Positions 1 through 60,302 of a DNA stretch of 64,000 nt are shown piece by piece. Origin of the DNA: Naegleria gruberi. Its lineage: Eukaryota. The notes beneath the pieces are model-generated. The model searched no databases, was not told the DNA's origin, and worked only from the letters and a program-made list of their open reading frames with translations. Made by a program: the position numbers and the translations under genes. The DNA lies in NCBI GenBank assembly GCA_000004985.1, contig GG738933.1; one strand, 5' to 3'. Position 1 is the stretch's first letter. Every line of letters begins with the position of its first letter.

Positions 1-457
1 AAACCCAAACCCAAACCCAAACCCAAATCCAAACCCAAACCCAAACCCAAACCCAAACCCAGGCCCAAACCCAAACCCAAACCCAAACCCAAACCCAAAC
101 CCAAACCCAAACCCAAACCCAAACCCAAACCCAAACCCAAACCCAAACCCAAACCCAAACCCAAACCCAAACCCAAACCCAAACCCAAACCCAAACCCAA
201 ACCCAAACCCAAACCCAAACCCAAACCCAAACCCAAACCCAAACCCAAACCCAAACCCAAACCCAAACCCAAACCCAAACCCAAACCCAAACCCAAACCC
301 AAACCCAAACCCAAACCCAAACCCAAACCCAAACCCAAACCCAAACCCAAACCCAAACCCAAACCCAAACCCAAACCCAAACCCAAACCCAAACCCAAAC
401 CCAAACCCAAACCCAAACCCAAACCCAAACCCAAACCCAAACCCAAACCCAAACCCA
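1..457. repeat. Terminal telomeric hexamer array (CCCAAA)n, i.e. (TTTGGG)n on the G-strand, about 76 units with a few variant units (AAATCC, AGGCCC)
   Basis: A perfect 6-bp tandem repeat runs from the first base of the window. The C-rich strand reads 5'->3' at the left edge, which is the orientation expected for a genuine left telomere. The array ends abruptly at 457 and joins a unique unit. Confidence 0.85.
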
Positions 458-769
458 CGGCTAAGGTCAGACCCAATATTTTGACTTTTATTCATCCTAA
501 TTAATTATCTCAATAAATACTCATTATAAATCAATATATTATATATTGATATACTCCAAATTGAATATGTAATCATATTATGGCATAATATTACGTCATT
601 ATAATGACTTATATAAGTTTGTTTCATATAATAGATTAGAGGATTAGGATATCAATGAAAACATTTCAAATTCAATTCAAATCAATGTATCAGCTTATAG
701 ATCATGTTAACGACAATATATATCAATTTCAAATACTTTGGTGTCGTTTCAAGATGTTTACTATTGGAN
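458..769. repeat. Telomere-associated subtelomeric unit, copy 1 (truncated by an assembly gap)
   Basis: It starts acggctaaggtcagacccaatattttgac directly after the telomere repeats. It is about 93% identical over ~310 bp to 2467-2790, which has the same junction to an upstream telomere-repeat array. Confidence 0.8.
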
Positions 770-818
770 NNNNNNNNNNNNNNNNNNNNNNNNNNNNNNN
801 NNNNNNNNNNNNNNNNNN
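770..818. other. Assembly gap (N run)
   Basis: A run of n. It is preceded by ctattgga and followed by telomere-type repeats. Confidence 0.95.
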
Positions 819-1270
819 CAACCCAAACCCAACCCAACCCAAACCCAAACCCAAACCCAAACCCAAACCCAAACCCAAACCCAAACCCAAACCCAAACCC
901 AAACCCAAAGGCAAACCCAAACCCAAACCCAAACCCAAACCCAAACCCAAACCCAAACCCAAACCCAAACCCAAACCCAAACCCAAACCCAAACCCAAAC
1001 CCAAACCCAAACCCAAACCCAAACCCAAACCCAAACCCAAACCCAAACCCAAACCCAACCCAAACCCAAACCCAAACCCAAACCCAAACCCAAACCCAAA
1101 CCCAAACCCAAACCCAAACCCAAACCCAAACCCAAACCCAAACCCAAACCCAAACCCAAACCCAAACCCAAACCCAAACCCAAACCCAAACCCAAACCCA
1201 AACCCAAACCCAAACCCAAACCCAAACCCAAACCCAAACCCAAACCCAAACCCAAACCCAAACCCAAACC
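819..1270. repeat. Internal telomere-repeat array (CCCAAA)n with CCCAACCCAA variants
   Basis: About 450 bp of the same hexamer lying ~0.8 kb inside the terminal array. One unit has a GG interruption (cccaaaggcaaaccc). Confidence 0.85.
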
Positions 1271-1940
1271 CTTACTTTCAATTAGTCAGTCAGTTAATGT
1301 TCAATGTCAATAGTGCTTTTATCCAAGTGTACACTCCATATCAGTGAAAGTACGTCCCATCATCATGTAACTTTGCCAGATACATTTAATCACATTATTA
1401 TACATATGGTATCAGTTTTAGTCTGTTAGAATTGAATTCAATATGATAATAATAACAATCTGTCAAATTGTCACATTTCAATATATAGAATATACTCAGT
1501 CAATTTACAATATATCATACAAGTATCAAATATGAATACACTCCTCTTGGTGAGGAGAACAATCTGAGAAAGTTTCACATTGATGGTTCAGTATCTTAAA
1601 TTCCACTAACTTACCTTAGAAGAAGGTTTACGTTCCATCTCAGTCATTTCATAGAGTTACTGATCAATTTCAACACCAGTATGTTATTCATCCGTTCTGG
1701 TACAATTCAAGTTTCAAGAGTGAGTTCTATGATAAAGTTGATGGAAGTGAGTGCCAAATGGCACTTTCACTTCCACTATAGTAGTAAGCTTTGTTAATCC
1801 TTTCGATTCTGAGCCATTTTCACATCAACTTGAATCTATTTTTAACTTTTCCGCGCGTTTTTCGGTTTGATCAACCGGCAAAAATACTTTTGATCAAGTG
1901 ATTTTATTACCACTAGCCACCATCATAACTTGATATATAT

Positions 1941-2230
1941 NNNNNNNNNNNNNNNNNNNNNNNNNNNNNNNNNNNNNNNNNNNNNNNNNNNNNNNNNNNN
2001 NNNNNNNNNNNNNNNNNNNNNNNNNNNNNNNNNNNNNNNNNNNNNNNNNNNNNNNNNNNNNNNNNNNNNNNNNNNNNNNNNNNNNNNNNNNNNNNNNNNN
2101 NNNNNNNNNNNNNNNNNNNNNNNNNNNNNNNNNNNNNNNNNNNNNNNNNNNNNNNNNNNNNNNNNNNNNNNNNNNNNNNNNNNNNNNNNNNNNNNNNNNN
2201 NNNNNNNNNNNNNNNNNNNNNNNNNNNNNN
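1941..2230. other. Assembly gap (N run)
   Basis: A run of n followed immediately by telomere-type repeats. Confidence 0.95.
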
Positions 2231-2466
2231 ACCAACCCAAACCCAAACCCAAACCCAAACCCAAACCCAAACCCAAACCCAAACCCAAACCCAAACCCAA
2301 CCCAAACCCAAACCCAAACCCAAACCCAAACCCAAACCCAAACCCAAACCCAAACCCAAACCCAAACCCAAACCCAAACCCAAACCCAAACCCAAACCCA
2401 AACCCAAACCCAAACCCAAACCCAAACCCAAACCCAAACCCAAACCCAAACCCAAACCCAAACCCA
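2231..2466. repeat. Internal telomere-repeat array (CCCAAA)n
   Basis: The same hexamer. It ends with cccaaacccacgactaaggtcagaccc, the same junction as at 452-480. Confidence 0.85.
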
Positions 2467-2790
2467 CGACTAAGGTCAGACCCAATATTTTGACTTTTAT
2501 TCATCTTAATTAATTATCTCAATAAATACTCATTATAAATCAATATATTATATATTAATATACTCCAAATTGAATATATAATCATATTATAACATAATAT
2601 TACATCATTATAATGACTTATATAAGTTTATTTCATATAATAGATTAGACAATTAGGATATCAATGAAAACATTTCAAATTCAATTCAAATCAATATATC
2701 ACCTTATAAATCATGTTAACAACAATATATATCAATTTCAAATACTTTGGTATCATTTCAAGATATTTACTATTCAACTTGTCAACTGAC
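2467..2790. repeat. Telomere-associated subtelomeric unit, copy 2
   Basis: Near-identical to 458-769, with scattered substitutions such as acggct/acgact and catcct/catctt. Confidence 0.8.
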
Positions 2791-3258
2791 CTATTCTAAC
2801 ATTGAAGGTAGAAATCTATACCACTTCAATTCACTTCCAATACATCTATACATGTTAATGAAATACATTAATATCATTTTGACATTCATCCATATCATAC
2901 ATGCTACATGGCTGATCTACTTGACACCTACAGGGATGTGACAATGACATCCACTATACAGATCATCATGAAACTGATACAGGACCTTAGTAAAGGTGAA
3001 TAAACACTACTGTATCAGTTTCATGACAATTTGAAATCATTCAACTAGTCAGGAGTGTAATCATGAGAATTATGAATATCAAGATAATGAAATCATATTA
3101 AATTTAAAAGCTTTCAATTATAATATCATATATAGATCAATTAATCATGGTATATCAATAATTGGTATTGAATTTCATATTAATTCATTCAAACCTTAAT
3201 TACCTATCCTTAGATGACCAACTCAATTTTAAACTATCATGAATCATATAACTATTGG

Positions 3259-3726
3259 NNNNNNNNNNNNNNNNNNNNNNNNNNNNNNNNNNNNNNNNNN
3301 NNNNNNNNNNNNNNNNNNNNNNNNNNNNNNNNNNNNNNNNNNNNNNNNNNNNNNNNNNNNNNNNNNNNNNNNNNNNNNNNNNNNNNNNNNNNNNNNNNNN
3401 NNNNNNNNNNNNNNNNNNNNNNNNNNNNNNNNNNNNNNNNNNNNNNNNNNNNNNNNNNNNNNNNNNNNNNNNNNNNNNNNNNNNNNNNNNNNNNNNNNNN
3501 NNNNNNNNNNNNNNNNNNNNNNNNNNNNNNNNNNNNNNNNNNNNNNNNNNNNNNNNNNNNNNNNNNNNNNNNNNNNNNNNNNNNNNNNNNNNNNNNNNNN
3601 NNNNNNNNNNNNNNNNNNNNNNNNNNNNNNNNNNNNNNNNNNNNNNNNNNNNNNNNNNNNNNNNNNNNNNNNNNNNNNNNNNNNNNNNNNNNNNNNNNNN
3701 NNNNNNNNNNNNNNNNNNNNNNNNNN
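3259..3726. other. Assembly gap (N run)
   Basis: A run of n. It is preceded by aactattgg, the same motif that precedes the gap at 770. Confidence 0.95.
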
Positions 3727-5218
3727 ATATCAGATGTACACAAGATAGAATATCATACCACTACTCTTATATATGATATTTATAACGTTTCTGAGTGATT
3801 AATACCAATATCTATATAATTGGAATATCTGTCAAGCTACTGACCCAATGGATCAAAGGAAATGTTCTTACATGTCAATAATGGTAAGAATCAATACCAA
3901 TTCAATATTATCATGTTATAATCATCAAATACTCTCATAGAATCAATTTTGGAATGATTTCAATATCATCTTAGATAGTTGTTATATGGCAAAGTTATTA
4001 CCTTAGTGAACTACCCATGTCATTAAGAAATGTCAAAATTGAAATATTTCAATTATATATTCATATACACATCCAGTAGAGTCTATAATATCAGTTTCAT
4101 AACATATAATCAATAATTGGTATTATGGCAATAATTCTATTGAGATTAGACATTGCAACATTTCCCAAATTGGAAATATAGAATATTAAATCATGAAACC
4201 AATTATATGTCGATAAAATGCATAGATAAACGATATTATCAAATAAAATATATGGGTCCCTATTGAAAATGTTTACCTGGTAAAAAGTGAGCGTAATTTC
4301 CCCAACTTTCATCCTAATTGGTTATCTCCCTATATATATGATAGATTTCAATTATTTTAATTTCATATCATAAAACATGATAATTAGACATGTATCAATG
4401 AGTGGAATTAAGTCATGTATGATATTCATCCTTCAGTTACCAGTATTGTCAATTTCACACAAGTTGACTTCCTACAGTCTGAATATGGATCCAATAATGG
4501 TTATTTCAGTTATATATCATTATATTTGATATTTACTACATTATTAACAAGTTTAATAAATTGGTATAGTGTTTCCATAGTACGGCTCAATATCTTAGTC
4601 AATTAAGGTAGAATGAGTACAGTATACTAAGGATATCATATATTATACTTCCAACATTTATACATGGTAGATATCATCATTATACATCATATATATGAGA
4701 TTGGTGATGATTGTAATAACATTCATATAATAGTACAATAAATGTTGAAAAGTTAATTTTTAGACATGTTGTAGTTTATTTAATATACCGATTCAACAAG
4801 ATTAATTCATAATATCGTCTATTCATATATATATCTACAATATATCAAAAGTTTCATTCTGGCCCAACTTTGAAATTTTCAACTTTGTCAGACCCAAGGT
4901 AGGTTCAACCCATGGGGTCACTTTAGGACTCAATTATCTCGGGAACGGCGAATTAAAAAAATTAGTATTTTCTATCATTTATTCCAAAACTCATATAGAT
5001 TGATATTTGAGTGAATCATAACCCGGAACGTTCTCGTCGCAGAGATAATAGATATACTAGGAATTTTTGAGTTGACCATTTTTGATTATCTCAATAACTA
5101 CGGGGAGTTTTTTCACGTGTATTACAGAATAGATATATTAATGTATTTAATAATACATATATAAGAACTGGATAGCCAATATTAGCCGTTCGTTTTATGT
5201 GATTAGGTTTTCGCCATA

Positions 5219-5248
5219 CCCAAACCCAAACCCAAACCCAACCCAAAC
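5219..5248. repeat. Short interstitial telomere-like tract (CCCAAA x ~4.5)
   Basis: cccaaacccaaacccaaacccaacccaaac embedded in unique sequence about 5.2 kb from the end. Confidence 0.7.
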
Positions 5249-6042
5249 TCATTGTGAACATTACACAATGATATTAAAATAATAAAATTCTTGTTTTTTC
5301 TTTTTATTTCATTTCTTTCACCTTAAATCGAACAATTAACCTTATTTCCTTAAAAATCATTAAGATCAAATTGAATTTCAAAGATAACCAACTTTTTCAA
5401 CATATACACGTTATAGGGATCACACTCATATCAATTAATCCATATTTTTCATTTTCAGTAAAAAATCAAAATTTGAACTTTCCAAAGTTTACTATTTACC
5501 TGAATTGTTTGAGAAGGAAACTTCTCATAAAAAGAAGGGTAGTTTCCCAACAGTGTTTTAATCAACTAAGTCAAACTATTTCATGTCATTCTTAAATTTG
5601 AGACAGAAAAAGTGAAATCTTTGATTTTAGTGAATATTCCACAACAGAGGTGTTGTGTTTGTGAATTTATTTCCATTTTAAATTTTTCCATTTTGGATTT
5701 ATTATAGAATGATACATTAGTATTTCCCTTAATCCCATTCTTGCTACTGCTGACTGTCCCGTTTGACAGCTTATTACATCTGACGGATCCCGTTAGACGG
5801 GATTTACCGTCACACCGTCAATTAGTATCTCCTCATGTTGTAAACTATACCACAACTCAAGGTTTGATGAATTTTGAGCTCGATAGAAGAATCTTTTCTG
5901 TATTGTACAATGCTCTTAGTAAAGCTGCAGGAACTAGATTAAACAAGTCAACTAGCTCTGGCCCAGTCTACTGCTAAATCATCAGATTAAACTTAAACTT
6001 GTACTCTAATAAAACACTTCCCATAAATTAACAATTTTACTA

Positions 6043-7737
6043 TTATTGGAGAACAGAGTATTCTCTCTGATTATATTTCCAATTCGTTACATAGTCATCC
6101 TGTTGAGCCTTCTCACTCATTCCAGCAGCAACAACCCACCATCGAGGGTTCTCCTGTTGATCATACCAACTCTCTCCATTCATTCCAACATTATCAATTC
6201 TACTAATTCTATTAGAACATGGACTAATCATTCTCTCATCATGTCTTCTCAAATCCCTCAATAATGATCCCAAAAAGTGATTGGATTTAATTGGTAAATA
6301 GAGCCATGTAATGAATAATCTCTTAAAAGTTCTCAGAGGCATTCCACTTCCCCACACAGCATAATAATTTTCCATCACCAAATGATTGACATCTGTCAAT
6401 TTACAATGTTCAGTGAATCCTCTAAAACCTCTTGGTATGTTATTAATTAATCCAGCACTATACAGAGCAGATGCTGTGTATCTACAATTATGAGTCATTC
6501 CATGAGCATAGGATGAAATGGCAAAGTATGGAGAAGCTTCATTAATTGTGTGTTTGTACAGAGATCGATGATAATTGTAAAAATCAGAGAATGGAATGAT
6601 ATCATCTTCTAAGGTAATGACATATGGATACTTGTACTTGACAAAACACAAATATAATCCATATAAGGCATGTGTCAATAATTTGGTACTCTTTTCTTGT
6701 GTGAAGGCATTGTCAAAGTTTGGTCCCATCAAATTTTGTAAACTATTCTTGAAAGCATGGAAATAGATTCGAATTTTTACGCATTTCACAAGTAGAATTT
6801 CAGAGAGGACTGACAGGAATGCTTCACCATCTATGGTGATAATGAGAATTGATTTTTCAATATCTCTAACTTTACAAACTCCTTCAAGAACTTCTTTTAG
6901 TGGACTGGTTCTCTTGTAAGCACGGAGCCAAATTGGTAAATGATCTTCTTGCTGAGATTCGTCAAATTTATCTGAATTTAGGACAAAGTTAAGATTATTC
7001 ATTTCTACTTTCCAATCTTCCAGAGTTCTATCCATATTGGGAAACTTATTCATTTGATCAAACACGGCAATGTGTTCATTTAAATAGGATTCGAAATTAG
7101 TTTCTTTAACTGTAGGATTTTCAATCACATTTCTATTCGATTCTGATAACTGAACGGTTGCTGATCTATCACCATCCAGAATCATATTCCTTGTAAGAAC
7201 TGTTCTCACTGTGGCTGGCACAAAGTTTGGCCACATGACCAACAAATCCTCAATCGACTTTTTTGGCATTCTCGAAGTGTCAATTGGATTCCAGGCACTT
7301 GAAGCATCTGACATTGTGGAACATTCAGTACCTGGTAGTGTTTCTAATTTGTTATACCGACTGATATCGTATGGATGATTGAATTTCATGTGAGTTATCA
7401 CTGGTTTCAGGGTTGATTCAATAGTTTCGTTTGGAAATGATGAATTAGTTATTGGCAGAGCTTGAGATCGAACAAAATCTGGTCCAATTTGCTTTGGCCA
7501 CTCACCCTCCATCTCGTTTAGCTCATTTGGAGGCAAGATTGCAGCAATTCCACGACTTGGCAGTTTTGGAATCACTTCAGATTCGACATTTCTCGATTCT
7601 AAACGCTTAAATAATGAAATATAATTGCGAGAGTGATATTTGACAGTTTTCGAAGTGGTTCCAATCCACCAACCAACCTGGAAGAGAAGAAGAAAGAAAA
7701 GAAGTGAAGTGAGGATGTTGAGTGTTTTTTTATACAT
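6043..7737 (-). CDS. Type II membrane glycosyltransferase-like protein (GT-A fold, GlcNAc-transferase I/GT13-like)
   Basis: Uninterrupted 564-aa ORF starting at ATG. It has an N-terminal signal-anchor (LLFFLLLFQVGWWIG). The motif VITLEDDIIPFSDFY resembles the EDD...PDFF catalytic motif of GnT-I-type transferases. Confidence 0.45.
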   Translation of the reverse strand: MYKKTLNILTSLLFFLLLFQVGWWIGTTSKTVKYHSRNYISLFKRLESRNVESEVIPKLPSRGIAAILPPNELNEMEGEWPKQIGPDFVRSQALPITNSSFPNETIESTLKPVITHMKFNHPYDISRYNKLETLPGTECSTMSDASSAWNPIDTSRMPKKSIEDLLVMWPNFVPATVRTVLTRNMILDGDRSATVQLSESNRNVIENPTVKETNFESYLNEHIAVFDQMNKFPNMDRTLEDWKVEMNNLNFVLNSDKFDESQQEDHLPIWLRAYKRTSPLKEVLEGVCKVRDIEKSILIITIDGEAFLSVLSEILLVKCVKIRIYFHAFKNSLQNLMGPNFDNAFTQEKSTKLLTHALYGLYLCFVKYKYPYVITLEDDIIPFSDFYNYHRSLYKHTINEASPYFAISSYAHGMTHNCRYTASALYSAGLINNIPRGFRGFTEHCKLTDVNHLVMENYYAVWGSGMPLRTFKRLFITWLYLPIKSNHFLGSLLRDLRRHDERMISPCSNRISRIDNVGMNGESWYDQQENPRWWVVAAGMSEKAQQDDYVTNWKYNQREYSVLQ

Positions 7738-30280: not shown

Positions 30281-30581
30281 CTTTTCAAAGTAGGCATTTG
30301 CTTCTTTTTTAGTGGGGAAGGGAGAGACTTAATGTTCGGAGTTTTTGTTTTTTTTGTTGTTGTTGTTGTTGTGGAAGATGAAGATGGTTTGTTCTTCTTC
30401 TGTTGTTGGACTTCTCATGAGTCGTGGTGGATTTTGAAATTTGTTGATGTTGACGTTTGTTGTTTTGTTTGCCCATTTTTTTTAAATAAAATAAATAAAA
30501 TTAAAAAACATAAACAATGTTTATCATCATTGAATTTTTACTAAACCTAAAAGTCAATACCCGAATACTAAGGAAAAGGTT

Positions 30582-30654
30582 ACAGCGAGCGGGGCTTGAA
30601 CCCGCGACCTTAAGCGTGTTAGGCTTACGATCTAACCAACTGATCTATCGCTGC
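30582..30654 (-). tRNA. tRNA-Val (anticodon AAC)
   Basis: A 73-nt cloverleaf on the minus strand. The acceptor is GCAGCGA/TCGCTGT, the D-stem GATC/GATC, the anticodon stem TAAGC/GCTTA with loop CTAACAC, and the T-arm GCGGG-TTCAAGC-CCCGC. Confidence 0.85.
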
Positions 30655-32296: not shown

Positions 32297-33052
32297 ATGT
32301 CTACAACAACAAACAAATTAGTCGTCATTACAGGTGCTTCCAGTGGTATTGGTGAAGCTACTGCAGTTTTATTCGCTCAGAAGGGTTACAAGTTGCTTCT
32401 CCTTGCTAGAAGAAAGGACAGATTGGAAGAATTGGTGAATGATAGTCGTTACTCTTTCAATCAAGATAATACTCTCATTCATCAATGTGATGTCACCAAT
32501 GTTGAAGATATTCGTACAGGAGTTGAATTGGCAACCAAAAAGTTCAATTTACCAGTTGACTGTTTCATTAACAATGCTGGAATTGGTCATTCTTCTCCAC
32601 TTTCTGAGCAATCATTAGATAAGCAATATGCTGTCATTGATGTCAATATCAAGGGTGTCCTCAACGGCATTAACGTCGTTGCCAAGGACATGGTCCAACG
32701 ACAAGCAGGAACCATCATTAACATCAGCAGTATTGCTGGAAGAAAGACCATGGATGGTGCCTCAGTTTATTGTGGTTCAAAGTTTGCAGTTCATGCCATT
32801 AGTGAAACATTGAGAAGTGAGGTTGCTTCTTCCAAGGTCAGAGTTGTTGTAATTTCACCTGGAGTGACAGAGAGTGAAATTACTGGACACGATGAGAAAC
32901 TACACGAAATGGTTGAAGGAATGAAGAAGGGACTTACTTTGGGTATTCTAAAGGCACAAGATGTTGCCGAATCTATTCTGTATGCCTATCAAGCTCCTCC
33001 ACATGTTTGTTTGAGAGAAATTGTTTTGGCACCAACAGAACAATCCCTTTAA
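32297..33052 (+). CDS. Short-chain dehydrogenase/reductase (classical SDR, NADP-dependent YdfG-like)
   Basis: 251 aa, intronless. It has VVITGASSGIGEATA (TGxxxGxG), NNAG, and the catalytic S...YCGSK (YxxxK). Confidence 0.85.
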   Translation: MSTTTNKLVVITGASSGIGEATAVLFAQKGYKLLLLARRKDRLEELVNDSRYSFNQDNTLIHQCDVTNVEDIRTGVELATKKFNLPVDCFINNAGIGHSSPLSEQSLDKQYAVIDVNIKGVLNGINVVAKDMVQRQAGTIINISSIAGRKTMDGASVYCGSKFAVHAISETLRSEVASSKVRVVVISPGVTESEITGHDEKLHEMVEGMKKGLTLGILKAQDVAESILYAYQAPPHVCLREIVLAPTEQSL

Positions 33053-36405: not shown

Positions 36406-36478
36406 GCCGACATAGCTCAGTTGGGAGAGCGTAAGACTGAAGATCTTAAGGTCCCTGGTTCGATCCCTGGTGTCGGCA
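36406..36478 (+). tRNA. tRNA-Phe (anticodon GAA)
   Basis: GCCGACATAGCTCAGTTGGGAGAGCGTAAGACTGAAGATCTTAAGGTCCCTGGTTCGATCCCTGGTGTCGGCA. It is close to canonical tRNA-Phe, with one T-T mismatch in the T-stem. Confidence 0.8.
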
Positions 36479-49757: not shown

Positions 49758-52700
49758 CTATTTCTCACTTCGTTTGTAAATAGGTTTTGAATCAATTTGA
49801 TAAATAAGGAAGGCTCTTCCAATAAATTTGGAAATAGCAGCTTGGATCTCTGGCCATTTCTTTAAGACGTTATGGTTGGGGATCTTATCTATATATTCAT
49901 TCTCAAAAAAGGTTATGCCTGAGTGATGGAAATATAGCACATATGAGTATTGGAAAGGAATTTCTTGGATAGGGGAGAGTGAACACTCAGGTCTATCAAG
50001 TATTTCTGTTAATCTATTTTGACAATATCTTCTTTGATTGTCTAGTCTGGGGCATTCATGTATGTAATGTTCTAAATTTGAGGGACAATTACAATCTGAG
50101 CAGGTTGGATTCAATTCATCTTTCTTCTGTGTATATTTGATATGAGAATTTGAAGCGTTTCGCCAAATTTGATATTTGGTTTTAGGTGACAGTCGTGACT
50201 TGAGGTAGGCTACATTAATTGATGACCAGCTTTGGTTTGGAATAAAGTTGGGATTACTATCAATTGCTTCGTGCATCTCCTTAAGTTGGCGATTTACAGT
50301 CATTCTTTTGCAATCAAAGATCACAATATCGTTTTTCATAAGTAAATATTGGTTGGTTAGTAAGGATTTGATATCAAAGATCTTATCTCTTTCAGTTCCA
50401 TCTTTCGCAAGGCGATCTACTATTATATTTTCCTTATCTTCATGTCCTTTAACTTTGATTATATAAACTGAAATATTCTTTTCTTTTTGGATATTGAAAA
50501 ATTCAGTTTTGAAAGGGAGAAAGTTTCCTTTGTATTTTCTGGATAGGACATCTATTGCAACTTTGCTATCTGTGTGTATTCTAGCGGTTGTTCCATTTGG
50601 AAGTAGTTTCATTGCAGTGATAATTGCTCCTATTTCTGCAACATTGTTAGAGTATTCATTATTGATACGGAGTGAAAGGCTTTTACAAGGTGATAACCTT
50701 CCACCGGATTCATATATATTAATACCCATACCTGTTTTACCTGCAAGCTTGGATCCGTCTGTATGGATAATAAAGCATCTATTGGTTTCATTCACTTTCT
50801 TTAATCTGAATTTGGTATGATTCTTTTTGAAATCTAAATTATATTTCTGAAGTATTGACATCCATTGAATGAAAATGTTATTACTATTATCATTGGTATG
50901 ACTAATTCCAAATTTAAAAGCTTTCTGAACTAACTTGTTATTGGAATTTGCTATTAAGGAGAGAGTTCTTAAATTAAGTCTGTCTGTAAATTCTTCAATT
51001 GAGGGAACACCGAGTCCACCTTCTTCTAATGGTAGGTGGAAAAAAGCTGTTTTGGTGGTTCTGTCTAGTTTTAACTTTGTTCTGAGTACATTTCTAATGC
51101 AAATATCTATTCTTGATACCAGTGATGGAGGAATGACATTAAGTTTGGATAGATGTGTAAATAAACTAATCACTTTAGCATGAAGGACTTGTCTTAAATT
51201 ATGGGGTTGAAGTTTGAGTATTGGGAAATATTTCAGTGATTCATTGAATTTAGCTATCTTGCTTTCAATATCTTCTTTGACCAATTTATCTTCCCAAGGG
51301 TAGTGTCCGAGAACTCTAAGATTTTTCTGAATGGGAATTGGCACTTGTTTGATTTTTGGTATGATTTTGCTTTTTGTGGGAAGGAGAGTGGCAATTGACT
51401 TTTTTGCATTTAATTTGAAAAGCAATTGAGATAACCAGTCGTCGATGTTATCTAGTCTTCCATTATAATTTGTGAATCTGTCGCATACTATATTCATATC
51501 GTCAGCGAAACAACAAAGACCAATTTCGTTTGCATTCAATTCAGATGGTTCTATTGGTAGTTGCCATTGGTCTATTGCTTTGTCTATTATGAGTTGTGTA
51601 ATACAATCGTAAATAAGAGGTGCTAATGGGCAACCTTGAGGAATTCCTCGTGTTTTTGTGAAGTTATTTGATAGATGTTTGTCAATTTCTAATTGTAAAC
51701 TGTGATTGCTGTATGCATTAATTATAAAATCAGTTAGTGGTGTTGGGAATTTACAATGATTAAGGGCCATCCTAATAACCGGCATCTCCACTGCGTCGTA
51801 GGCACCTTCAATGTCAAGGTTGACTAATATAAATGTTCTTCGTCTAGTTTTCAAGGCCAGGGAGGAAAGTACTATTCCATGGTTCATTGTATTTCTATTA
51901 TTTATGAAGGCCTGTTGTCTCATATTAATCTGAGAGCTAGCCCATTCACATAATTTGTGGGCGATTAAATTAAAAAGGATTCTATAAAATATTGGTAGTA
52001 TTGTGATGGGTCTAATATCTCCTAATGTTTTAACTTCTCGCTTTGGAATCAGTTTAACCCAACCGTGTTTCCATTCTTGGGGGATATCTCCTTGTGTTAA
52101 ACATTTGTTAAACTCTTCAACTATTAAAGCTAATTTCTCTAATTTTAAGCCCTTGATGATATCTAATGAAATTTCGTCTTGTCCTGGTGTATTCGATTTC
52201 ATTCTTTTAATGGTTTCTTTTACATCTCTATATGAAATCCGACCTATATCTCTAGGACCTGAAGTGATAGTGGATGGACTTGGCATAAAGGTTGGTGTTT
52301 GATTGGAGGTTGTAAACTTTTTGGAAAAATAATCTAAAATTTCTTGTTCTCCAAATGGCAATTCTTTCCAGATAATTTCTTTAGAATGCAGTTTTCTATC
52401 AAATTGATACATGTGGGAGGCGTGACTATTGTTATATTTGTCAGTTAATTGTTCTTTGATTTCTTTACATGATTGGATGTGAGTCTCTTTAAGAATTGTT
52501 TGTAGTTCTGATATTTCATCAAGTCCAACATTTGGGTCTTCTAATTTACCCATAATCTTATTTTCTAATTTACGAATTTTACCTTTAAATATGGAGGAAA
52601 TAATGCTACCACCAAGTCTGTCAACTTTGGTTCCATATTTTGCAATGTTGTTTTGTATTTCTGCATTTAATTCTTGAAATGTATTGGCATTTGACGTATT

Positions 52701-53486
52701 TATCTCTTTGATCATTTCTTCTCTTTTCTTCTTACCAATATATGATCTCCAATTTAAATGTGATTTGAATTCAATATCAATGTAAAAAGGGATGTGATCA
52801 TTACTTGTGAGCGGTGGAAGGAGTTCTTCTTTGATAACCTTAATATCTTTAGACACGAAAATGTGGTCTAATCTTGAAGTGGTGATTCTATTCTGTTGTC
52901 TTCTAATGTAAGTCTTATTATTAGTCTTATATTCTGTTAGTTGGAGTAGATTAAATAGCCAGCACCATTCTTTATCTCTACCGTTTGAAGGATTAATGGT
53001 ATTGATATTAAGATCTCCATTAATTATGACATGTTCATCTCTACATGTCAGTACTGCATTTGTTATACTGTTCATGGCTTCAACATCATTTTCTTTATCA
53101 TCAACTCTTCCACTAAGATATGGAGTGAAAATATTAATTGGTATACCTTTGCTTTCGAATCGTGTCCATTGAAGAACACCTGGAATTAGATTGATATTAG
53201 TAATATTTCTCTTGTGAGGGTTGTTAAGGAAGTGCATAACAGCCGTCCCTTTTTTTCCTTTCGTTGTATTCATTAAGGAGTTAAATAATATATAGCCTGT
53301 TCCTGAATTTTTAACTTTATATTCTAGATCAGGAGTATTTAAATGAGTTTCGGTTAACGAAATCATGTGTATTTTATGATGAAGACACATTGATTTCACT
53401 TCTGGTGTAACCGATTTCTTACTAGCATGTTTATACAGGCCGTTTACATTGTAACACGCTAGTCGTAAATTACTATAATTACTCAT
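49758..53486 (-). CDS. LINE ORF2: AP-endonuclease - reverse transcriptase - RNase H - CCHC zinc finger polyprotein (1242 aa)
   Basis: N-terminal exo/endo/phosphatase motifs (CYNVNGL, SLTETH, GDLN, SRLDHIF). RT motifs occur around FADDMNIV. RNase H motifs are IHTDGSK and KVKGHED. The C-terminus is a CCHC module (CSDCNCPSNLEHYIHEC). Confidence 0.85.
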   Translation of the reverse strand: MSNYSNLRLACYNVNGLYKHASKKSVTPEVKSMCLHHKIHMISLTETHLNTPDLEYKVKNSGTGYILFNSLMNTTKGKKGTAVMHFLNNPHKRNITNINLIPGVLQWTRFESKGIPINIFTPYLSGRVDDKENDVEAMNSITNAVLTCRDEHVIINGDLNINTINPSNGRDKEWCWLFNLLQLTEYKTNNKTYIRRQQNRITTSRLDHIFVSKDIKVIKEELLPPLTSNDHIPFYIDIEFKSHLNWRSYIGKKKREEMIKEINTSNANTFQELNAEIQNNIAKYGTKVDRLGGSIISSIFKGKIRKLENKIMGKLEDPNVGLDEISELQTILKETHIQSCKEIKEQLTDKYNNSHASHMYQFDRKLHSKEIIWKELPFGEQEILDYFSKKFTTSNQTPTFMPSPSTITSGPRDIGRISYRDVKETIKRMKSNTPGQDEISLDIIKGLKLEKLALIVEEFNKCLTQGDIPQEWKHGWVKLIPKREVKTLGDIRPITILPIFYRILFNLIAHKLCEWASSQINMRQQAFINNRNTMNHGIVLSSLALKTRRRTFILVNLDIEGAYDAVEMPVIRMALNHCKFPTPLTDFIINAYSNHSLQLEIDKHLSNNFTKTRGIPQGCPLAPLIYDCITQLIIDKAIDQWQLPIEPSELNANEIGLCCFADDMNIVCDRFTNYNGRLDNIDDWLSQLLFKLNAKKSIATLLPTKSKIIPKIKQVPIPIQKNLRVLGHYPWEDKLVKEDIESKIAKFNESLKYFPILKLQPHNLRQVLHAKVISLFTHLSKLNVIPPSLVSRIDICIRNVLRTKLKLDRTTKTAFFHLPLEEGGLGVPSIEEFTDRLNLRTLSLIANSNNKLVQKAFKFGISHTNDNSNNIFIQWMSILQKYNLDFKKNHTKFRLKKVNETNRCFIIHTDGSKLAGKTGMGINIYESGGRLSPCKSLSLRINNEYSNNVAEIGAIITAMKLLPNGTTARIHTDSKVAIDVLSRKYKGNFLPFKTEFFNIQKEKNISVYIIKVKGHEDKENIIVDRLAKDGTERDKIFDIKSLLTNQYLLMKNDIVIFDCKRMTVNRQLKEMHEAIDSNPNFIPNQSWSSINVAYLKSRLSPKTKYQIWRNASNSHIKYTQKKDELNPTCSDCNCPSNLEHYIHECPRLDNQRRYCQNRLTEILDRPECSLSPIQEIPFQYSYVLYFHHSGITFFENEYIDKIPNHNVLKKWPEIQAAISKFIGRAFLIYQIDSKPIYKRSEK

Positions 53487-55123
53487 TTAGAAAGAGTACA
53501 AGATGATGAGCTTTTTGATTCTTCATCATCTTGCATAATAGAATTATTAGTACTATTATTTATATAATGGGAGATTTTGTCAATAAGTTCCATTGTATCA
53601 GCTAATGCTTTCTTAAAATCACGCAGTTCAGTTTCAATATTAGATAGTCTAGTTTCAAATAGATTGGTTGTTGTATTAATAGTAGGAGTAACTACAGAAT
53701 TAGTGGTTGAACTGGTATTATCGTTAGATTGTATAGGATTGATCATAGGATTAGTTACTTCCGGTAATTTAGAGTTAGTTAGAAATGGATATTGTTTTTG
53801 TTTTCTTTCAATTATTTCATCTAATTGTTTAATAGATGGTACGAAACAGTAACTGGTTCCATCAGTAATGTTTTGTTTGGTATTGAGAACAATTTTCTTG
53901 TCAATAAATAGATTCATTTCGTCAATATTTGAATGGACGACTTTACATAATTTAAAGGTAGTGGTATTGGATTTGTTTTTGGATTCAGTTATCATGCATT
54001 GGTTAGTATTGAAATCTTTTTTAATGCGTTCGTATACACGAGTAACACCATCGATGATTTCCTTGTTTGTAAAGGTAGGTGGAAATAAACATTCTGAAAC
54101 ATTAGTAGGAGTTTCATTACGCAATTGTTCAACAGATTTGTAATTAGTTAAATTAAGCTTCTTTCTAATAACTTCGCACACATCTTCGTTTTCGTATGAA
54201 ACTCTAATTATATATTTACCATGTGATTGGTTTGTATACATTTGGGAGATAAGTATAGTATTATCGTTATTAACTGAGTGTTTGATTAGTGATTTAATCA
54301 TATCAATGTGTTGTGAATATATGTGTGTAGAGTGAGTTAGAGCGTACAAGCTATGCTCGAATACAGCAGGTGATGGGAAGAATTTCAATATTAAATCATT
54401 GTGTACACTATCAAGCATATCTTTGCAAAGAATATAATTGTCATTACTATTGCAATGAAGATTAATGACATTACTAGTTTGGGGTCTTATTTTAATGGTG
54501 GCAAATTCCCCAAAGATGTCCATAATTTGTTCCATGAATTTGTTATTAATTCTTTCATAGCAGATAATATTAAGTGAATGTGTCAAATCGAATTTCTTAT
54601 TTTGCTTGACTGGTTTTTTACCATAGAATGAAATTGAGCGTTTCATTTTGATTTGTTTTGCTATAGTTTGTTTGATACTTGGTTGAGCTTTTATAGGGTG
54701 ATACTTCACCATATCCAAATATGGAGTAAGTTGTAGTTTGGTATTTTGCTCAATAGGGTTCTTACTACATTCATATTTTGGTTTAATATTACTAGTAATG
54801 GAATGAATTTGTTGATTTCTATTTTGGGGAGTTGACTTAATATTTTGGATTTCTGAAGTAGGTTTTTTAAATGAATCAGTAGAAATGTTAGTGGTAGAAG
54901 TATCTTCTTGATTAATATTATCAACTTTAACCTTTACATCTTTGTCTTGTACAAACTCGGATTTAAACATTATTTTGTCGTAAATCTTTTGCATAGTTTC
55001 CATGTATTTTTGAAGACGAATATTTTCAATCCGATATGAATCGACTGCTTGTTCTAACACAAGAATCCTGTTAGTCAGCTGCAGACAATTTATTGGATCA
55101 GGAGGGCGGTCATGTAAAGGCAT
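53483..55123 (-). CDS. LINE ORF1 (546 aa, N-terminal coiled-coil, nucleic-acid-binding-type protein)
   Basis: It lies immediately upstream of ORF2 within the TSD-delimited element. Its stop overlaps the ORF2 start as ATGA. The N-terminus is heptad-rich. Confidence 0.7.
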   Translation of the reverse strand: MPLHDRPPDPINCLQLTNRILVLEQAVDSYRIENIRLQKYMETMQKIYDKIMFKSEFVQDKDVKVKVDNINQEDTSTTNISTDSFKKPTSEIQNIKSTPQNRNQQIHSITSNIKPKYECSKNPIEQNTKLQLTPYLDMVKYHPIKAQPSIKQTIAKQIKMKRSISFYGKKPVKQNKKFDLTHSLNIICYERINNKFMEQIMDIFGEFATIKIRPQTSNVINLHCNSNDNYILCKDMLDSVHNDLILKFFPSPAVFEHSLYALTHSTHIYSQHIDMIKSLIKHSVNNDNTILISQMYTNQSHGKYIIRVSYENEDVCEVIRKKLNLTNYKSVEQLRNETPTNVSECLFPPTFTNKEIIDGVTRVYERIKKDFNTNQCMITESKNKSNTTTFKLCKVVHSNIDEMNLFIDKKIVLNTKQNITDGTSYCFVPSIKQLDEIIERKQKQYPFLTNSKLPEVTNPMINPIQSNDNTSSTTNSVVTPTINTTTNLFETRLSNIETELRDFKKALADTMELIDKISHYINNSTNNSIMQDDEESKSSSSCTLSK

Positions 55124-59125: not shown

Positions 59126-60302
59126 TTACAAATTGAAAGATAATCTTTCCCATTCACCAACAGCACTTCTATTGACAACAATATCTCCACTTGGTTCCAC
59201 ACAAACATAGGTATTATGTTCAGATTTCAATGCAATAGCTCCATTTCCATGCAATTCAACACTAAATTGTTCCCAAGGTCCAACAGCATCACGATTAGCA
59301 ACCAACAAACCACTTGGTTCAGCACACATCAATTTACCATGAGCAGATCTGAATGCATTCTTTCCAGCTCCATGATGTTCAACAGTGAATTGTTCCCAAG
59401 GACCAACTGCATCACGATTGGCAACCATTGAATGATTTGATTCAGCACACAACAATTTACCATGATGATGTCTCAATGAAATGCTCTGATTTGGAGCCAA
59501 TGAAAATTGGAACTGTTCCCAAGGTCCCAAAGCATCTCTATTAGCAATAACTAATCCAGATGGCTCAGCACACAAGAATTTACCATGAGCTGATTTGAAT
59601 GCCACTTGATTTCCAGATTGAACCAATGAGAAAGTTTCCCACGGACCCAAAGCATCTCTATTGGCAATAATTTCACCACTTGGTTCAGCACACATGAATT
59701 TTCCATGAGCTGATTTGAATGCATAATCATTTCCAGAAATGTGAATCAAAGTCATTGCTTCCCAAGCTCCACTGGCATCACGATTGGCGACAACTTGACC
59801 ACTTGGTTCGATACAGAAGTATTTGGAATGACAAGATCTGAGATTGGCCAATAGGGAACGATGTTTGGCTGAGTGGATAGTGTAGGATCCATGTGGACCA
59901 GAATAATTGGTTCCTGGATAGGACATGCCACCTCCAGTGACGAAAAGATAGACATTGATAAAGTCGGAGAGGGAAATGGACTTGCTCTTGGCATGATCAA
60001 CGAGTTTAAATAAGAATCTAATGAAATTTTGATTATTCGAAAGTAAACTATTTCTGTACTTACTTGATTTCTTCCTTGGCGAGACCAATATCTTGAGCAG
60101 CTTTCTTCCATTCCTTCTTATTCATGGAATTGGAGTGATCCTTGTCGTATTGTTGGAAAGTAGATTGTGCTTGAGAGATGAGTTGTTGATCTTGACCATG
60201 TTGAGGCTAAAGTAGAGTAAACTAGACGAAAGTATGAGAATGCGTACTTACAATTTGGAAACCAGAAGGTGCCCATGATGGTTGTTGTCCTTGATACCAC
60301 AT
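59126..60302 (-). CDS. EF-hand pair + six fascin/hisactophilin-like beta-trefoil repeats (3 exons)
   Basis: Exons are 60302..60252, 60206..60075 and 60029..59126, with GTAAGT introns. The EF loop is DKDHSNSMNKKE. Six ~40-aa repeats follow, of the form AFKSAHGKF(M/L)CAEPSG..(I/V)ANRDA.GPWE.F, similar to hisactophilin (AFKSHHGHFLSAEGEAV) and fascin trefoil subrepeats. The exon 2/3 boundaries are approximate to a few nt. Confidence 0.6.

Follow-up and report, generated by a model that had tools for sequence, protein, structure and literature searches.

The outermost part of this Naegleria gruberi scaffold, in which telomere repeats occur at the very start and again at positions further inward, raises the question of whether a chromosome end really alternates telomere tracts with subtelomeric DNA or whether this layout was produced during assembly. 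The window, by which we mean the whole 64,000-nucleotide stretch of DNA that was analyzed, is the start of a 99-kb (99,287-bp) scaffold of the published draft genome, and proteins encoded in it are identical to N. gruberi accessions of a single contig of that length. From its first base inward it consists of a telomere cap, about 5.8 kb of AT-rich non-coding subtelomere and then ordinary genes (Table 1), and the glycosyltransferase-like gene is the onset of the ordinary gene-dense chromosome. Between 458 and 5834 no ORF of at least 45 aa was found apart from the frame of a GTPase remnant, and no RNA family was matched. The locus as a whole is an ordinary subtelomere plus one curious mutation pattern. 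We consider it probable that the end is genuine, that its three outermost contigs (A, B, and C) are parallel terminal fragments set in series, that the end has been remodelled, and that one copy of a subtelomeric unit (copy C) has been deaminated.

Table 1. Features of the terminal region and one element further inward, with positions in the window.
Feature	Position	Strand	Remarks
Terminal (CCCAAA)n array	1-457	+	76 copies, 98% matches (Tandem Repeats Finder)
Subtelomeric unit, copy A	458-768	+	Ends ...ACTATTGGA, cut by gap 1
Assembly gap 1	769-818		50 N
Second long (CCCAAA)n array	819-1271	+	Degenerate first repeats at gap edge
Telomere-adjacent sequence of contig B (CTTACTTTCAATTAG...)	1272-1940	+	Different telomere junction
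Assembly gap 2	1941-2230		290 N
Third long (CCCAAA)n array	2231-2466	+	Begins at gap edge
Subtelomeric unit, copy C	2467-2774	+	94.5% identical to copy A
Rest of contig C	2775-3258	+	AT-rich, non-coding, ends ...ACTATTGG before gap 3
Assembly gap 3	3259-3726		468 N
Contiguous AT-rich non-coding block, GC 25-33%	3727-5213	+	Holds unit-like stretch at about 4308-4570
Interstitial telomere tract, five repeats	5214-5248	+	Gap-free on both flanks
Non-coding block from tract to synteny breakpoint	5249-5834	+	Absent from related contig L001
MMR_HSR1-type GTPase gene remnant, last ~46 codons and stop	5835-5977	+	From comparison with L001
Glycosyltransferase-like gene, weak GNT-I/MGAT2 matches	6043-7737	-	First intact gene inward
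Intact non-LTR element, APE-RT-RNaseH	49758-55123		

The window starts at a genuine N. gruberi chromosome end, as had been claimed from the sequence alone. The array at 1-457 lies at the window start with its C-rich strand reading inward, so that the minus strand carries a short G/T-rich repeat, (TTTGGG)n, running 5' to 3' toward the terminus, and its few variant repeats all fall within the first 63 bases. Telomere-like 12-mers were found 180 times in the window, compared with 0.46 expected by chance, and were confined to the plus strand and to 1-5242; none occurred in the opposite orientation anywhere in the window. TTTGGG has been reported as the candidate telomere motif of N. gruberi (Fulneckova et al., 2013, PMC3622300), and the array described here agrees with that report in motif, species, terminal scaffold position, and orientation of the G-strand. 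The cap is of the type that telomerase maintains. Beyond the motif itself the earlier report gives no detail; no mention of the unit, of its junctions, or of the interstitial tract was found in the literature searched.

The first 3.7 kb are composed of three short contigs, A (1-768, 768 bp), B (819-1940, 1122 bp), and C (2231-3258, 1028 bp), each of which begins within a telomere array and runs inward, and all three N gaps of the window lie inside this segment. The first of these gaps starts at 769 and not at 770. Tandem Repeats Finder called AAACCC repeats at 820-1271 (76 copies) and 2234-2466 (39 copies); when the degenerate first repeats are counted, these arrays reach outward to 819 and 2231 and so abut the N runs, matching the coordinates of the sequence-only reading, which had the first two gaps opening onto telomere repeats. 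Both long internal arrays therefore begin exactly at an N gap, and the contigs that precede them, A and B, finish in non-telomeric DNA free of telomere repeats, which is the arrangement expected of stacked terminal contigs. As A and B end in this way, there is no read-through into the distal side of either array, and for the long internal arrays none of the contigs contains a distal junction from non-telomeric to telomeric sequence, although the gaps could conceal such junctions. The near-equal lengths of the first two arrays (457 and 452 bp) look like a read-length limit. Judged from this contig geometry, the long 'internal' arrays most likely belong to separate fragments of chromosome ends that were joined up during scaffolding. 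The three contigs would be parallel terminal fragments, derived either from paralogous ends with a common inner subtelomere or from variants of this one end, be they haplotypes or subclones. With mate pairs of all three leading to one and the same inner contig, the scaffolder would have set them in series, separated by N gaps. In mate-pair drafts, telomere-bearing contigs of repeated subtelomeres can be scaffolded in series, and the present locus resembles such artefacts in its arrays at gap edges, its short contigs, the missing distal junctions, and the confinement of gaps to the terminal 3.7 kb. The earlier proposal, in which the assembler collapsed an extended tandem array made of telomere tract and unit, finds no support: the arrays start at gaps, no distal junction is present, and the middle block carries other sequence. 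Parallel contigs that mate pairs brought into series are the simpler reading.

The existence of two near-identical unit copies joined to telomere repeats at the same base was borne out by the comparison. Copy A (458-765) and copy C align without gaps over 308 bp at 94.5% identity (E = 5e-112), or with 19 differences in 311 bp (93.9% identity) when the last three bases of copy A are included, and both share the junction ...AAACCC|ACGRCTAAGGTCAGACCC. The length of about 320 bp that had been assigned to the unit suits the comparable part but not the full unit, as copy A ends at a gap. Only two of the three blocks combine telomere repeats with the unit, as the middle array joins 1272-1940, a sequence that showed no relation to the unit or to any other part of the window. 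A degenerate unit-like copy in the same orientation is present at about 4308-4570, and the unit gave no match in the metagenome, prokaryote-genome, and viral collections scanned. A and C may be two diverged copies of one ancestral end, and B a different end; descent of A and C from one end would explain the identical junction base, which is no evidence of repeated healing or of site-specific targeting, since common descent of two copies predicts the same. The previously noted motif ACTATTGG was indeed found ahead of gap 1 (760-767, followed by an A) and of gap 3 (3251-3258). This 8-mer occurs five times in the window, both strands counted together, against about two expected, and its presence at two of three gap edges has, very roughly and by our own estimate, a chance of about 1e-3 after multiple comparisons. 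Contigs A and C both end on it, as would happen if a shared repeat boundary interrupted the assembly of two homologous copies.

The differences between the two copies are strongly directional. Read from copy A to copy C, they comprise 14 G>A, 2 G>C, and 1 C>T changes, with none in the reverse direction, so that 14 of the 33 Gs but only 1 of the 41 Cs have undergone the transition (Fisher p = 1.9e-5). Copy C is depleted in G, with a GC skew of -0.42 compared with -0.08 for copy A, and the observed/expected ratio of CpG is 0.09 in contig C (2467-3258) versus 0.87 in copy A. The unique flank compared with L001, used as a control, has an unbiased mutation spectrum. With respect to the 5' neighbour, the mutated fraction was 3/4 for CpG, 7/13 for TpG, 3/6 for GpG, and 1/10 for ApG. 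C>T and G>A transitions make up 15 of the 17 differences, in keeping with the duplication-confined transitions of fungal repeat-induced point mutation (RIP). The mutated sites nevertheless show no strong CpA (TpG) preference, and the RIP composition indices, TpA/ApT and (CpA+TpG)/(ApC+GpT), are within the range of the remaining window. The host is a heterolobosean and not a fungus. Judged solely from strand and mutation spectrum, the best explanation of the G>A cluster appears to be that cytosines of the G-rich, 3'-ended strand were deaminated at a time when this strand was single-stranded, a state that may have arisen when a deprotected end underwent 5' resection or in the course of break-induced replication. 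In yeast, it is established that strand-biased clusters of mutations form in single-stranded DNA at uncapped telomeres, and strand-coordinated clusters are also known from break repair (PMC2577886, PMC3521656). Like those clusters, the changes described here are dense, of the C>T type on one strand, adjacent to a telomere, and on the strand that resection exposes; unlike them, they are seen only as a difference between two natural copies with no known induced damage, and an artefact is possible.

For the G>A cluster alone, the alternative is such an artefact, in the form of deamination in one molecule or clone represented by a one- or two-read contig, or else a decay of a methylated repeat driven by 5mC, and we regard it as unlikely. 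Contig C, being so short, may rest on very few reads, which would suit an artefact, but a change in 42% of the Gs is far above the ordinary level of cloning damage. For decay by 5mC, three of the four CpG sites of copy A read CpA in copy C, in line with the low CpG ratio of contig C, and 5mC in Naegleria has been reported to be confined to transposons (PMC12695648); against it, 11 of the 14 G>A changes lie outside CpG, and the CpG>TpG changes expected on the plus strand were not seen.

Independent of the gaps, the inner part of the subtelomere points to remodelling of this end. The tract at 5214-5248 (35 bp) has the same orientation as the terminal array, is the only internal telomere tract with sequenced non-telomeric DNA on both sides, and is followed by a hairpin with a 7-bp stem at 5250-5270. 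It may be the relic of an older telomere, to which more distal subtelomeric DNA was added later. Further inward, L001, a metagenome contig from a close relative, matches 7859-5835 at 97.7% and then diverges into an intact MMR_HSR1 GTPase gene (249 aa), which places a synteny breakpoint between 5834 and 5835; in N. gruberi the remnant of this gene adjoins the 5.8 kb of non-coding AT-rich DNA. The ancestral chromosome would have run past 5835 into the GTPase gene, of which the 3' end alone was kept in this strain, and a terminal break within the gene may have been mended with the subtelomere of a different end, either copied by break-induced replication or attached by end joining. The polarity of the breakpoint is read from one metagenome contig, which could be chimeric. 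Only the five-repeat tract and the truncated gene are solid evidence for a past rearrangement of the end. The wider idea that healing, capture, or break-induced replication took place at this end in the past gains support from the interstitial tract, the truncation at 5835, and the copy at 4308-4570, none of which the sequence-only reading had used.

The serial layout might nevertheless be real, in which case long internal arrays would alternate with subtelomeric segments as in yeast Y' elements or telomerase-independent survivors, having arisen through successive rounds of break-induced replication or of unequal recombination among chromosome ends; we judge this quite improbable. In its favor, the arrays are all oriented alike, the unit with its junction recurs in two blocks, the inner sequence holds one true short interstitial tract, and the end is demonstrably rearranged with respect to a close relative. 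In addition, the degenerate copy at 4308-4570 indicates at least one serial duplication of the unit at this end, which makes a real serial arrangement less far-fetched. However, both long internal arrays begin at N gaps and their distal junctions were not sequenced, and reads anchored in contigs A and B should enter the adjacent array, yet these contigs end without repeats. In length and in perfection (98-99%) the internal arrays also equal the terminal one, whereas the proven interstitial tract is 35 bp long with 90% matches and 6% indels, and the unit is absent from the middle block. In the yeast subtelomere a core X is followed by a short interstitial TG1-3 tract and then by tandem Y' elements. 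The present end is similar in that a short tract, 5214-5248, divides an inner block from distal repeated subtelomeric DNA, and in that two copies of the distal element share the same telomere junction, but Y' encodes a helicase and the unit has no ORF, and the long arrays are only putatively internal. As to a Y'-like organization, 819-1271 and 2231-2466 have no sequenced non-telomeric DNA on their distal side, and the blocks do not all carry the same element. That the serial layout is real and that the G>A cluster is, moreover, a natural deamination footprint or the product of an undescribed deaminase activity in Heterolobosea seems very improbable. If the serial layout were true, nearly perfect arrays of at least 236 bp would be interleaved with different subtelomeric segments, recording repeated telomere capture or break-induced replication in a lineage about 2% diverged from an un-rearranged relative, and the one-strand cluster (42% of the Gs in 308 bp) would be the natural footprint of single-strand deamination at a eukaryotic telomere or of an undescribed cytosine deaminase activity in Heterolobosea that is directed at repeats or cDNA.

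It is hardly credible that the unit represents the 5' part of a retroelement that is non-autonomous and telomere-targeted, as are MoTeR, SART/TRAS, or Athena, and that was reverse-transcribed onto the 3' end of the G-strand and re-capped: the junction base is constant across the two copies, the 5214-5248 tract could be a telomere receiving an element and, with the plus strand as the presumed sense strand, G>A would be the known signature of an edited first-strand cDNA, but 458-5834 holds no reverse transcriptase or remnant of one and no meaningful ORF, a search of 5.8 billion sequences with the concatenated six-frame ORFs gave no protein homologue, the one intact non-LTR element of the window is not similar to the unit, only two copies are known, and common descent of two ends accounts for their one junction equally well. 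The telomere-targeted element that had been offered as a possibility has no support. The likeness to MoTeR of Magnaporthe, SART/TRAS, HeT-A/TART, and Athena is superficial, consisting of the same alternation of tract and element with a fixed junction; here there is neither a reverse transcriptase nor an autonomous partner, and the internal placement of the two copies is putative.

The preferred reading, that of a genuine and remodelled end with parallel terminal contigs, has consequences for the use of the assembly and for the biology of Naegleria. Where the draft shows internal telomere arrays beside N gaps, they call for read-level support before they are taken as biology, while the scaffold start is usable as the anchor of one N. 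gruberi chromosome end. The biological value of the locus is modest. It provides a first description of telomere-adjacent sequence for Naegleria, beyond the bare TTTGGG motif, and comparison with an environmental relative of about 98% identity indicates a recent remodelling in which a gene was truncated and the end gained 5.8 kb of non-coding DNA. The G>A cluster is a clean, testable example of strand-coordinated change next to a natural telomere and, if confirmed on independent reads, would correspond in nature to the single-strand hypermutation known from yeast experiments.

Long ORFs in the standard code are found in the window, which is gene-dense and has a GC content of about 34%, and the best named relatives of two of its proteins are from Naegleria. 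These ORFs and homologues exclude three other sources that the telomere motif and AT-richness had suggested: a ciliate macronuclear chromosome, a dictyostelid, and a RIP-affected fungus. The best protein matches were ENA sequences at 98% and N. gruberi paralogues at 41–60%, and an exact-sequence look-up returned three proteins identical to the N. gruberi GenBank/RefSeq entries EFC36276.1, EFC36294.1, and EFC36310.1. Because these three identical entries share a single 99,287-bp contig, the window covers the opening 64 kb of one scaffold in the draft genome published for N. gruberi. TTTGGG has been reported as the candidate telomere repeat of N. gruberi, taken from scaffold ends (PMC3622300), and the straightforward reading of array 1 is that it is a real chromosome end. 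A literature search for Naegleria subtelomeres returned nothing. Since the short-chain dehydrogenase is found under two accessions on two contigs, the assembly contains a second, identical copy of it, which is either a duplicate or part of a haplotype scaffold. In the DNA of the fascin/FRG1-like gene a tandem period of 120 bp is seen at 59516–59737.

Features of the window; the three N runs are its only gaps, and arrays were delimited with Tandem Repeats Finder
Feature	Position	Strand	Details
AAACCC array 1	1-457		76 copies, 98% matches
N run (gap 1)	769-818
AAACCC array 2	820-1271		76 copies
N run (gap 2)	1941-2230
AAACCC array 3	2234-2466		39 copies
N run (gap 3)	3259-3726
tRNA-Val(AAC)	30581-30654	-	among genes
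Short-chain dehydrogenase	32297-33052	+	EFC36276.1 and EFC35840.1, two contigs
tRNA-Phe(GAA)	36406-36478	+	among genes
Non-LTR retrotransposon	49758-55123	-	intact-looking; unrelated to subtelomere
Fascin/FRG1-like beta-trefoil repeat protein	59126-60088	-

Counting their degenerate first repeats, arrays 2 (from 819) and 3 (from 2231) each open directly behind an N run. The sequences that follow array 1 (458–765, copy A) and array 3 (2467–2774, copy C) are two copies of one unit, which align without gaps over 308 bp at 94.5% identity (E ~5e-112), and in both the array joins the unit at the identical base (...AAACCC/ACGRCTAAGG). The motif ACTATTGG closes the sequence before gap 1, where it is followed by one A, and before gap 3. 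Array 2 joins unrelated DNA (1272–1940) that has no match elsewhere in the window, and gap-free sequence holds a fourth, five-repeat telomere tract (5214–5248). Telomere-like 12-mers occur 180 times against 0.46 expected, on the plus strand only and only within 1–5242. The repeat and alignment results confirm the sequence-only reading in its description of the arrays, of a repeated unit with the same junction base, and of a motif at the gap edges.

That reading had further proposed that the arrays and units form a tandem array collapsed by the assembler. As far as the sequence goes, there is no positive evidence that the long arrays 2 and 3 are internal: for both, only the proximal junction between array and inner DNA was sequenced, and distally there is an N gap. 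The tract at 5214–5248, by contrast, has its two junctions sequenced. Were an array located just past contig A (1–768) or contig B (819–1940), anchored reads should have left telomere repeats at the right end of the contig; contig A ends in ...TTTACTATTGGA and contig B in ...CTTGATATATAT, neither of which consists of telomere repeats. Variant repeats gather at the left ends of contigs A, B, and C (2231–3258), the contigs are of 768, 1122, and 1028 bp, and arrays 1 and 2 are near-equal in length (457 and 452 bp), a pattern that seems to reflect read length and not biology. Fragmentation of the window is restricted to the terminal 3.7 kb.

From this layout, the simpler reading, and probably the correct one, is that contigs A, B, and C are parallel terminal fragments stacked in series. 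Their source would be paralogous ends with inner subtelomeric sequence in common, or else variants of this end (haplotypes or subclones), and the scaffolder would have strung them serially because one inner contig was linked to the mates of all three. That A and C have identical junctions would then reflect common descent of two ends, and ACTATTGG at two gaps would mark the homologous point where both copies enter an unresolvable repeat. The latter holds only if contig A has a 483-bp deletion between ACTATT repeats, and such repeats are present 483 bp apart at 2768–2773 and 3251–3256; contig A may lack the DNA between them and so end at the homologous point of contig C. Alternatively, contig A may run colinearly with copy C and carry a GG>CA change like that at 641–642. 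An origin of ACTATTGG at the gaps from a restriction or cloning site was considered and found no support. It is improbable that the serial layout is real and that long internal arrays exist at this end, since no distal junction is sequenced and the middle block (array 2 with 1272–1940) does not match the proposed repeat of telomere and unit. The collapsed tandem array is not demonstrated and is probably a product of scaffolding, and of the overall interpretation the chromosome end and its history of remodelling are retained.

The interstitial tract at 5214–5248 is oriented as the terminal array is and looks like a relic of an earlier telomere that afterwards received more distal DNA. Directly proximal to it, a small hairpin (CATTGTG-N7-CACAATG) is seen at 5250–5270. 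Evidence for a break comes from an ENA metagenome contig of 3008 bp from a close Naegleria relative (L001; ERZ929261, k127_112080), which matches window 7859–5835 at 97.7% and beyond this breakpoint has nothing further in common with the window. Past the breakpoint L001 carries an intact gene of 249 aa with an MMR_HSR1 GTPase domain at its positions 1894–2643, and the window retains the last ~46 codons and the stop of this gene (5835–5977, plus strand). Because the gene is intact in L001 and the window keeps a 3' remnant, the state in the window is the derived one, in which the chromosome was broken inside the gene. L001 represents an environmental Naegleria 97.7% identical to the reference over 2 kb with a structurally different chromosome end; the two also differ by a 14-bp indel at window 6015. 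Adjoining the breakpoint, the stretch 5760–5834 contains repeated CCGT(T/C)A and GACGG words, which on the other strand read TAACGG, resembling Myb sites.

All sequence distal to the breakpoint (458–5834) is AT-rich (GC 19–33%), and it yielded no meaningful ORF of at least 45 aa, no Rfam match, and no protein homologue. It includes a degenerate unit-like stretch at ~4308–4570, in the same orientation, at ~64% identity and with no telomere tract in front, which is the best-scoring place for the unit window-wide (score 34.5; background 15.6 +/- 3.5; maximum beyond the subtelomere 26.5). Unit-like DNA was therefore laid down here more than once. The break and the added distal block are evident on comparison of the sequences, and the repair pathway is likely to have been one in which the terminal break would be repaired by copying or joining the subtelomere of another end (break-induced replication or end joining), and the newly formed end would be maintained by telomerase.

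The two copies of the unit differ in a strongly directional way. From copy A to copy C there are 17 differences in 308 bp (14 G>A, 2 G>C, and 1 C>T) and none in the reverse direction (direction test, p = 1.2e-4), and the changed sites comprise 14 of the 33 Gs of copy A versus 1 of its 41 Cs (Fisher p = 1.9e-5). GC skew is -0.42 in copy C and -0.08 in copy A, and CpG observed/expected values are 0.09 in contig C and 0.87 in copy A. As a control, adjacent unique DNA compared with L001 was unbiased (G>A 3, A>G 3, C>T 5, T>C 3). The changes of the cluster read C>T on the minus strand, which is G-rich and has its 3' end at the terminus. Resection of the 5' end leaves the G-rich, 3'-ended strand single-stranded. 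In yeast, dense strand-coordinated clusters arise in single-stranded DNA at uncapped telomeres and breaks (PMC2577886, PMC3521656), and our preferred explanation is that the G>A cluster would have arisen in single-stranded DNA at an uncapped end or break, as in yeast. Alternatively, if only one or two reads underlie contig C, it might represent damage to one cloned molecule; it might also stem from the editing of a cDNA intermediate. A further alternative is that a methylated repeat decayed, and 5mC in Naegleria has been reported on transposons (PMC12695648); however, just 3 of the 14 changes involve CpG, and CpG>TpG was not seen. Fungal-type RIP was rejected, as sequence context and composition indices do not fit and the indices are not distinctive.

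Searches for relatives of the subtelomere gave no matches to a 25-mer of the unit in metagenome, prokaryote-genome, and viral collections, no relative in a protein-guided metagenome scan with the first gene, and no match of a 2035-aa concatenate of its six-frame ORFs (at least 35 aa) among 5.8 billion proteins. Two N. lovaniensis loci were mid-contig and non-syntenic. No tandem substructure was found in 2467–5900, and the terminal 8 kb yielded neither an Rfam family nor a tRNA. A candidate inverted repeat (2596–2784/3064–3256, 64% identity) was exceeded by only 1 of 300 Markov shuffles but was dropped because its score of 38.5 is barely above the 36.5 of unrelated AT-rich segments of the window.

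The proposed telomere-targeted element did not hold up, as the subtelomere has neither a reverse transcriptase nor an autonomous partner, and it shows no similarity to the intact APE-RT-RNaseH element of the window. The latter has an ORF1 of 546 aa without a Pfam match that overlaps by 4 nt with an ORF2 of 1242 aa containing endonuclease, reverse transcriptase, and RNase H domains. The terminal array belongs to the ordinary telomerase-type telomere class, with a motif already reported for the species. The order of inner block, short interstitial tract, distal repeated element, and telomere is like that of X, interstitial tract, and Y' in yeast, although, unlike Y', the Naegleria element has no ORF. 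To judge from the literature searched, this is the first-described Naegleria subtelomere, and its main points are the G>A cluster and the recent truncation of a gene.
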